A stretch of DNA of 63,948 nucleotides, filler included, from Dirinaria sp. TL-2023a (lineage: Eukaryota), in the NCBI GenBank assembly GCA_051941275.1. It is 27 parts of 27 records of this genome, joined end to end, with 100 filler letters (N's around TTAATTAATTAA, not from the genome) between each part and the next. Parts side by side here need not be neighbours in the genome. Positions count along the whole stretch, not along the records: positions 16,813 to 19,101 come from JAVEBF010002329.1; 26 more parts are not named here. One strand, given 5' to 3'. Each line of letters starts with the position of its first letter. The stretch's first letter is position 1. The translations under genes were made by a program, and so were the position numbers. Below are positions 17,469 through 17,994 of the stretch, piece by piece. Below the pieces are notes generated by a model. That model had not been told where the DNA came from, ran no database searches, and worked only from the letters and a program-made list of their open reading frames with translations.

Positions 17469-17994
17469 CTACTCAATGCCTTCAACATAGATGTTGTCGT
17501 CTAGGCGCCGTTTCTCAACACCTCCAACATAAGTATAATCCTCGGGACGGCGCTTCTCGACACCTCCGACATAGGTGTCATCCTCGGCGTGACGTCTCTC
17601 CACTCCACCTACATAAGTGTCCTCCTCGGGGTGACGTCTCTCCACTCCACCAACATAGGCGTCCTTCTCGGGGAACCGCCGCTCAACACCCCCGACATAA
17701 GTGTCATCCTCGGGGTAGCGTTTCTCGATACCTCCTACGTAGGTATCATCTTCGGGGTGACGTCTCTCCACTCCACCTACATAGGTGTTGTCCTCGGGGA
17801 ACCGCTGCTCTACACCTCCAACGTACGTATCCTTGGCAGCATTTCGGGGAACAAGGACTGCACCTGACGCCGCACATGAGTCGTCTTCATACTGCTTCGA
17901 TTGACCATTGGAACAAACCTCTAGGTACCGCGGGCATGGTGTGAGTAACAATGGCAAGAAATGCCATGATAGAGAAAATCTGTTGGATGTGCAT
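17469..17994 (-). CDS. Kex2-processed repeat precursor peptide of a dikaritin-type (UstA/PhomA-like) RiPP; exons 17994-17919 and 17863-17469
   Basis: Spliced product MHIQQIFSIMAFLAIVTHTMPAVPRGAVLVPRNAAKDTYVGGVEQR.. has a signal-peptide-like N-terminus, then 14-aa repeats xPEDDTYVGGVE(K/R)R (8 YVGG plus a terminal YVEG) with acidic spacers and KR/RR sites; 55-nt intron GTTTGT..CTCAT..CAG. Confidence 0.88.
17472..17835 (-). repeat. Coding tandem repeat, 42-bp unit, ~9 copies, within the precursor gene
   Basis: A + strand motif of the type CTCCACTCCACCTACATAAGTGTCATCCTCGGG recurs with 42-nt period; many differences are synonymous. Confidence 0.92.

Follow-up and report, generated by a model that had tools for sequence, protein, structure and literature searches.

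A predicted orphan Kex2-processed repeat precursor with a constant YVGG core beside a truncated UstYa-family sequence in Dirinaria sp. TL-2023a

Results

A tandem-repeat precursor gene on a short contig

We analysed a stretch of 63,948 bases from the Dirinaria sp. TL-2023a assembly GCA_051941275.1, referred to here as the window, and focused on a minus-strand gene at 17469-17994 that is predicted to encode a Kex2-processed repeat protein (KEP) precursor. The window consists of 27 pieces of about 2.3 kb each, arranged by descending length and separated by 26 linkers of the form N44-TTAATTAATTAA-N44 (2311-2410, 4718-4817, ... 61627-61726), which are of the six-frame stop type. Only the piece at 16813-19101 (2289 nt, JAVEBF010002329.1), with linkers at both ends, is physically joined to the precursor gene, and it also carries a UstYa-like sequence. 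Because the pieces are unlinked, a gene-cluster reading across the linkers is invalid, and a Pfam scan of the open reading frames (ORFs) of the window cannot bear on a gene cluster.

Exon 1 of the precursor (17919-17994, minus strand) starts with an ATG at 17994-17992 and encodes a 25-residue signal-peptide-like N-terminus (P0003), as judged from ORF calls and hydropathy. Exon 2 (17469-17863, minus strand), read by translation, contains a pro-region, eight repeat units, a degenerate ninth unit and a TAG stop at 17471-17469. There is no ATG upstream of the repeats in their own frame, and the start codon at 17994 opens a different frame. A putative 55-nt GT-AG intron at 17864-17918 (GTTTGT...TCAG), placed by frame logic alone, would join the signal-peptide frame to the repeat frame. 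The predicted signal peptide, which depends on this intron, has nine-residue Kyte-Doolittle means of up to 2.73 over approximately residues 6-17. The joined frame has no internal stops, and the putative splice sites are canonical.

The repeat block lies on the minus strand where the original prediction had placed it, and 17861-17472 translates into eight 14-residue units followed by the degenerate ninth. The eight full units (17508-17843), delimited by unit coordinates, the codon table and Tandem Repeats Finder, have the form x-(P/A)-E-(D/E/K)-(D/N/Y)-(T/A)-Y-V-G-G-(V/I)-E-(K/R/Q)-R, and unit 1 starts with N-A-A-K. The core reads YVGGVE in seven units and YVGGIE in one, with Y, V, G, G and E constant in 8/8 full units, which bears out the earlier claim that YVGG(V/I)E is invariant. 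The last unit, RLDDNIYVEGIE (17472-17507), is degenerate; it reads NIYVEGIE, reaches the stop, carries Glu at core position 3 and is without the terminal basic pair.

Residues around the core vary from unit to unit. The residue following the basic pair is F, H, Y, F, H, H and R in units 2-8, and N in unit 1, which has no pair before it. Before the Tyr, the second residue is D in six units, N in one and Y in one, and the residue directly adjacent is T in seven units and A in one. The original prediction had listed F/H/Y/R after the dibasic site and D/N/E/Y and T/A before Tyr; this description stands except for the E, which is one position further upstream (HPEED). Unit termini are RR (four units), KR (three) or QR (one), and the precursor has the tandem repeats bounded by Kex2 sites (KR/RR) by which KEPs are recognized. 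Directly after the cleavage site, all seven internal units start with X-Pro (six units: FP, HP, YP, FP, HP, RP) or X-Ala (one unit: HA).

Tandem Repeats Finder reported a period of 42 with 7.5 copies (score 262) and a higher-order period of 126 nt (score 361). Over the array at 17509-17822, matches amount to 82% at 126 nt, which corresponds to three units, versus 74% at 42 nt, and units 2, 5 and 6 use identical codons for GGVERR. This pattern suggests that the array grew by duplication of three-unit blocks.

The core is under purifying selection

We compared the eight units with one another and counted differences over the 28 unit pairs. There were 84 synonymous versus 7 non-synonymous differences in the core (codons 7-12), and 34 synonymous versus 80 non-synonymous differences in the spacer (codons 1-6). 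Variable nucleotide sites in the core numbered 1, 0 and 5 at codon positions 1, 2 and 3, respectively. When all six frames were considered, the minus coding frame alone combined a synonymous share of 0.58 with the absence of stops. Its antisense phase twin had the same share of 0.58 but contained 12 stops, and the other four frames had shares of 0.05-0.12. We conclude that Y-V-G-G-(V/I)-E has been held constant by strong purifying selection while the spacer drifted. The glycine at position 3 (Gly3) is encoded by GGA in four units, GGT in three and GGG in one, and unit pairs differ at about five synonymous codons.

Two long frames are open on the antisense strand, at 17393-17944 (+) and 17505-17867 (+), with 183 and 120 codons and synonymous shares of 0.05-0.09. 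We rejected these frames as genes on account of the low synonymous share and regard them as by-products of the repeat.

A truncated UstYa-family sequence lies head-to-head with the precursor

The only other gene on the contig is a UstYa/DUF3328 homologue on the plus strand, which lies head-to-head with the precursor at a distance of 170 nt from the precursor ATG. A DUF3328/UstYa-family gene beside the precursor is indicated by a match to Pfam family PF11807 (E 4.5e-9, 36.9 bits against a gathering cut-off of 25, profile positions 166-194 of 220) and by a relative in Letharia. This closest relative, P0135, is the 303-residue Letharia columbiana protein HO173_011308, which is 80% identical and has its UstYa domain at residues 43-263; Letharia belongs to the Parmeliaceae, Lecanoromycetes. 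A tblastn search with P0135 matched only residues 188-299 of 303, at 18137-18709.

Homology starts at P0135 residue 188 in a block at 18137-18203 (+), which holds an ATG at 18164 followed by an H-A-E-H-C motif that is split by the next intron. The exon at 18266-18344 (+) carries the second HXXHC motif region (EHCLNILRQTVQCNADLSILPMQW); it gives the PF11807 match and is identical to P0135 at 25/31 residues. A further exon at 18406-18533 (+) encodes the C-terminal H-x-C...W tail (profile 201-220/220, E 0.0035; 80% identity to P0135). It is followed by a putative 120-nt GT-AG intron at 18534-18653 (+), which appears as a gap in the alignment with P0135 and into which P0137 also reads, and by a probable last exon with a stop at 18654-18721 (+), placed by alignment to P0135. 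The remaining exons are without internal stops and their splice sites are canonical.

Upstream of these exons, an in-frame TGA is found at 18128-18130, and homology to the Letharia relative begins abruptly two codons later, at 18137. The simplest readings of this breakpoint are a deletion in an originally divergent precursor/UstYa pair, an orphan contig built from a minor deletion allele, or an assembly chimera. No direct or inverted repeats indicative of a mobile insertion or a junction were found flanking the locus. We also considered that the precursor might lie inside a giant intron of the UstYa gene; this was rejected, as the 656 nt beyond the precursor are without homology. On the opposite strand, TATATAAA (18139-18132) overlaps the start of homology and is located about 140 nt upstream of the precursor ATG.

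The Pfam scan covered 135 of the 159 window ORFs of at least 90 residues; the 24 that were dropped were mostly the shortest, and some overlapped other ORFs or linkers. No second UstYa sequence was present among the 135 ORFs, and the UstYa signature motifs (HC..LR and the C-terminal tail) occur nowhere else in the six window frames, where five further bare HxxHC matches are without UstYa context. A UstYa context for the precursor is partly upheld: a UstYa-family sequence is 170 nt away, but this copy is truncated at its 5' end, the contig measures 2289 nt and the rest of the window is unlinked.

The gene model of a second Letharia protein, P0136 (Letharia lupina HO133_005816), apparently reads through introns around the second HXXHC motif and has unrelated residues there instead of the motif, which the L. 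columbiana model retains.

Other contents of the window

Tyrosinase, methyltransferase, peptidase and transporter domains were absent from the 135 ORFs of the Pfam scan. Other, unlinked pieces encode a cytochrome P450, a PP1 phosphatase, an NB-ARC protein, an aldo-keto reductase and a TLC protein. The P450 gene at 29517-31066 (+) is split by introns into three ORF pieces and reaches the end of its contig at a linker (31022). At 53254-54686 (+), NB-ARC and DUF7779 pieces jointly resemble a fungal NLR-like protein. Two tandem repeats look non-coding: the one at 4501-4678 has an 81-nt period, 2.2 copies and 88% matches, and the one at 62383-62583 has an 82-nt period, 2.5 copies and 94% matches.

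Discussion

The gene described here is a new, orphan KEP with a ustiloxin-like layout, and we are confident, short of certainty, that it represents a real, expressed precursor. Its host is probably a lichen-forming ascomycete akin to Letharia (Parmeliaceae). The UstYa homologue lies head-to-head with it at 170 nt, from which we infer that the precursor belonged to a UstYa-type locus. Our slightly favoured interpretation is that a KEP with a ustiloxin-like layout once resided in a UstYa-type locus, and that the enzyme copy now adjoining it is dead or mis-assembled.

Several observations weigh against this interpretation. Residues 1-187 of P0135, which include the membrane region and the first HXXHC motif (YHSLHC), have no counterpart in the contig or the window by tblastn and a six-frame motif scan. 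Complete members of the family have two HXXHC motifs, according to a criterion quoted in PMC12048977; the sequence beside the precursor has one of the two and covers profile positions 166-220/220. Its ATG at 18164 aligns to a lysine in the Letharia protein and so does not mark a conserved start. Beyond the precursor the contig continues for 656 nt, and beyond the UstYa-like sequence for about 380 nt; with a length of 2289 nt it allows no tyrosinase, methyltransferase, peptidase or transporter to be linked to the precursor and no cluster to be claimed. Searches for relatives were also negative. When the repeat exon was run against 5.8 billion proteins in a word-index search, no precursor homologue was returned (0/8000 scored candidates at E 0.01). 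A phmmer search against 1.84 billion representatives gave 131 matches, none with Y..G(I/V/L)(D/E)(K/R)R or a fungal KEP layout; these were unrelated repeat proteins, including bacterial-looking LAPDGTYVGG repeats and neuropeptide-like precursors. Since the searches yielded neither an orthologue nor a paralogue of the precursor, comparison cannot delimit the conserved core. Finally, 6120 of 7878 KEPs (78%) are without a nearby DUF3328 gene and are presumed to be linear (PMC7329392).

Orphan status is ordinary for KEPs, 2560 of the same 7878 having no homologue (PMC7329392), and orphan KEPs with novel cores are common. One public contig of 822 nt contains a 110-residue ORF (P0044) with five 12-residue units of the form ETY(L/M)GGV(V/A/I)RR(K/E)K that is 53% identical to the repeat exon. 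P0044 is a singleton without a family or a Pfam match, and without a signal peptide in the called ORF; judging from the sequence, it could be a distant relative of the precursor or a chance repeat. A family of small proteins (P0060, P0072, P0086, P0090, P0091, P0097, P0110, P0119, P0122 and P0134) has (L/M)APDG(T/S)YVGGxP(R/Q) repeats and lipoprotein-like N-termini. Although TYVGG occurs in them as in the precursor, these proteins have few or no dibasic sites and look unrelated to it in architecture. In the literature, no link of YVGG to ustiloxin, dikaritin, DUF3328 or phomopsin was found among the matches listed, a search that ran outside the predicted-core lists of Ding et al. 2016 and Nagano et al. 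2016. The string YVGGVE occurred only in hepatitis C and peptide-synthesis papers, and YVGG was absent from the searched supplements of PMC7329392 and PMC12048977.

Among known systems, the ustiloxin and phomopsin precursors UstA and PhomA are the natural comparison. The ring of these peptides joins a Tyr and an Ile through their side chains (PMC7329392, PMC6514808), and UstA cores have conserved ED and KR flanks (PMC6514808). Like UstA and PhomA, the precursor has a predicted signal peptide, tandem units that end in a basic pair, an acidic ED before an invariant Tyr and a UstYa/DUF3328 neighbour, and its 14-residue unit compares with typical lengths of 13, 14 and 8 residues in the ustiloxin, phomopsin and asperipin-2a precursors (PMC7329392). 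It differs from them in having Gly instead of Ile at position 3 in 8/8 units (Glu in the degenerate ninth), in two extra residues (x-Thr) between ED and Tyr, in the truncation of its UstYa neighbour and in the lack of homology to UstA/POI2-type precursors detectable by phmmer. A tyrosinase and a methyltransferase are not seen here either, which a 2.3-kb contig could not have shown. In the YXIX type of ustiloxins and phomopsins (KEP type G-10, Umemura 2020), Y and I are kept in 441 repeats with 3 exceptions (PMC7329392). Since the Tyr1-x-Ile3 pattern is unmet and no sequence homology was detected, we do not file the precursor as ustiloxin/phomopsin type, and the membership of that type suggested at the outset is not upheld. 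The precursor fits the wider KEP/dikaritin-like class, with the adjoining class-defining enzyme incomplete.

Other members of this class show that a core need not contain Ile3. AprA, the asperipin-2a precursor (core FYYTGY), is likewise a KEP precursor with a core lacking Tyr1-x-Ile3, and a single UstYa homologue makes its ether links from Tyr side chains to beta-carbons without a tyrosinase (PMC6514808). Its core has several aromatics in 8-residue units, whereas the units here have one Tyr each and no second aromatic in the conserved block. GigA, which yields the epichloecyclins, and the victorin precursor are also multicore and Kex2-processed, and the DUF3328 proteins that close their rings do not use residue 3 as the partner. 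Asperipin-2a is linked via internal tyrosines, victorin via its C-terminal Phe and an internal Leu, and epichloecyclins from Tyr to the first residue (PMC9233826, PMC10540207). The GigA and victorin cores are unrelated to the one described here, GigA units being 27-mers with dimethylated Lys and victorin being chlorinated. [quoted passage not shown] Letharia HO173_011308 lies at a locus other than that of the Clan R1 methyltransferases HO173_010822 and HO173_010835.

These comparisons bear on the chemistry proposed for the core. Glycine as residue 3 rules out the ether ring from Tyr1 to residue 3 that ustiloxins and phomopsins have, and on this chemical point the original prediction was right. 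Its further claim, that the ring chemistry must be different, holds insofar as Gly3 excludes the link from Tyr to residue 3, but links to other partners were already known from asperipin-2a, victorin and epichloecyclins.

Maturation of yeast alpha-factor includes the removal of X-Pro/X-Ala-type dipeptides by Ste13, and the yeast alpha-factor precursor (MF-alpha) and fungal pheromone KEPs resemble the gene described here, with its predicted signal peptide, in having a signal peptide and Kex2 sites followed by X-Ala/X-Pro spacer dipeptides. We propose that the signal peptide would bring the precursor into the secretory pathway, where, judging from the site pattern, a Kex2-type protease would cut after the RR, KR or QR that closes each 14-residue unit and Kex1-type trimming would strip the basic residues. 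By analogy with alpha-factor, a Ste13-type dipeptidyl aminopeptidase would probably remove the leading X-Pro or X-Ala, leaving about eight decapeptides of the form E-(D/E/K)-(D/N/Y)-(T/A)-Y-V-G-G-(V/I)-E. The computed monoisotopic masses of the linear decapeptides are 1081.46, 1082.44 (EDDTYVGGVE), 1096.46, 1065.50 and 1130.48, and the [M+H]+ is 395.19 for YVGG, 494.26 for YVGGV, 623.30 for YVGGVE and 724.35 for TYVGGVE. As the variable F/H/Y/R falls within the X-Pro/X-Ala dipeptide after the cleavage site, it more likely belongs to a discarded spacer; its proposed roles as a source of congeners or as an aromatic cross-link partner appear unlikely by the same analogy.

Whether the peptide is modified by a UstYa-family enzyme is close to evenly balanced in our view, leaning slightly towards no. 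Any such modification would have to come from a full-length enzyme of this family elsewhere in the genome. If it occurs, the link we would favour is an oxidative cross-link centred on the tyrosine, reaching across the flexible Gly-Gly to the beta-branched Val/Ile5. This particular partner is a tentative choice, made by analogy, and is itself unlikely to be the right one. The Tyr1-Val/Ile5 ring would be i to i+4 and would exceed the 13-membered ring of ustiloxins in size. The partner may instead be Thr(-1), Val2 or the N-terminal amine, the last as proposed for epichloecyclins. The most specific version, in which this is the first repeated-core dikaritin-type precursor from a Lecanoromycete and a full-length UstYa paralogue links Tyr1 to the beta-carbon of Val/Ile5 in an i to i+4 macrocycle, we regard as quite improbable.

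The same observations allow other explanations. The gene could be a stand-alone KEP whose decapeptides, released by Kex2 and Ste13, serve without modification in signalling or in a pheromone-like role; the UstYa fragment would then be an irrelevant relic. The large share of KEPs that have no DUF3328 neighbour or no homologue speaks for secreted linear peptides, as do the truncation of the sole adjoining UstYa copy and the X-Pro/X-Ala spacers, which follow the alpha-factor pattern. The nearest ESM Atlas clusters, whose weak scores make them a lead only, were Ascomycota hypothetical proteins (0.81) and, second, alpha-factor precursors (MF_alpha, 0.79). The alpha-factor precursor, however, is linear and without a DUF3328 neighbour, whereas a UstYa-family remnant adjoins the precursor here. 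This head-to-head adjacency would be improbable by chance, given that the remnant is the sole UstYa sequence among 135 ORFs and the sole signature-motif match in the window. The invariant Tyr and the ED and KR flanks fit ustiloxin-type logic (PMC6514808), and Tyr is enriched in KEPs linked to DUF3328, being present in 65.6% of the repeats of KEPs with such neighbours versus 38.2% of those without (PMC7329392). Taken together, we think it unlikely that the peptides are simply linear, though the case is a substantial one.

We give comparable, limited credence to the locus being a relic or an artefact, in which a head-to-head UstYa gene lost its 5' 60% by deletion, along with the intergenic region (in a dying cluster or a minor allele), or the contig is an assembly chimera. 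This would account for the abrupt start of homology just past the in-frame stop and within the upstream region of the precursor, and the contig belongs to a set of 27 leftover pieces, each about 2.3 kb long. The orientation is also what one deletion in a divergent gene pair would be expected to leave. Were it so, the present context of the precursor would be uninformative on the chemistry of its peptide. Against a relic or artefact stand two reading frames that are otherwise intact, with canonical putative splice sites and no internal stops, long-term purifying selection on the precursor core and the absence of a repeat or inverted repeat at the junction. The original prediction had also named a recent loss of function, in which Ile3 of a ustiloxin/phomopsin-type YxIx precursor has lately changed to Gly. 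The layout is indeed similar to the ustiloxin type, and V/I at position 5, with an acidic residue between it and the basic pair, is reminiscent of the ustiloxin follower. Gly3, however, is older than the divergence of the units, because it is present in 8/8 units with three codons while unit pairs differ at about five synonymous codons, and its retention since before that divergence counts against a recent loss of Ile. A change from Ile to Gly would also have needed two base changes in every unit, and no UstA-type relative was found by HMMER. We consider a recent loss very improbable.

With orphan KEPs common, cores without Ile3 already known, the adjoining enzyme broken and the contig tiny, the precursor is a modest lead and not demonstrated new chemistry. 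The presence of a repeated-core precursor, where the survey of the two Parmeliaceae clans found none (PMC12048977), gives it some added interest. Ustiloxins, phomopsins, victorin and cyclic peptides related to them derive from KEPs beside UstYa enzymes, and up to now every new core has brought a new scaffold. If the YVGG peptide does carry a modification, the set of known cross-links would widen, and a Tyr1-Val/Ile5 link would give a ring size so far undescribed for UstYa chemistry. The precursor would then be the first candidate substrate for the UstY loci of lichen fungi.

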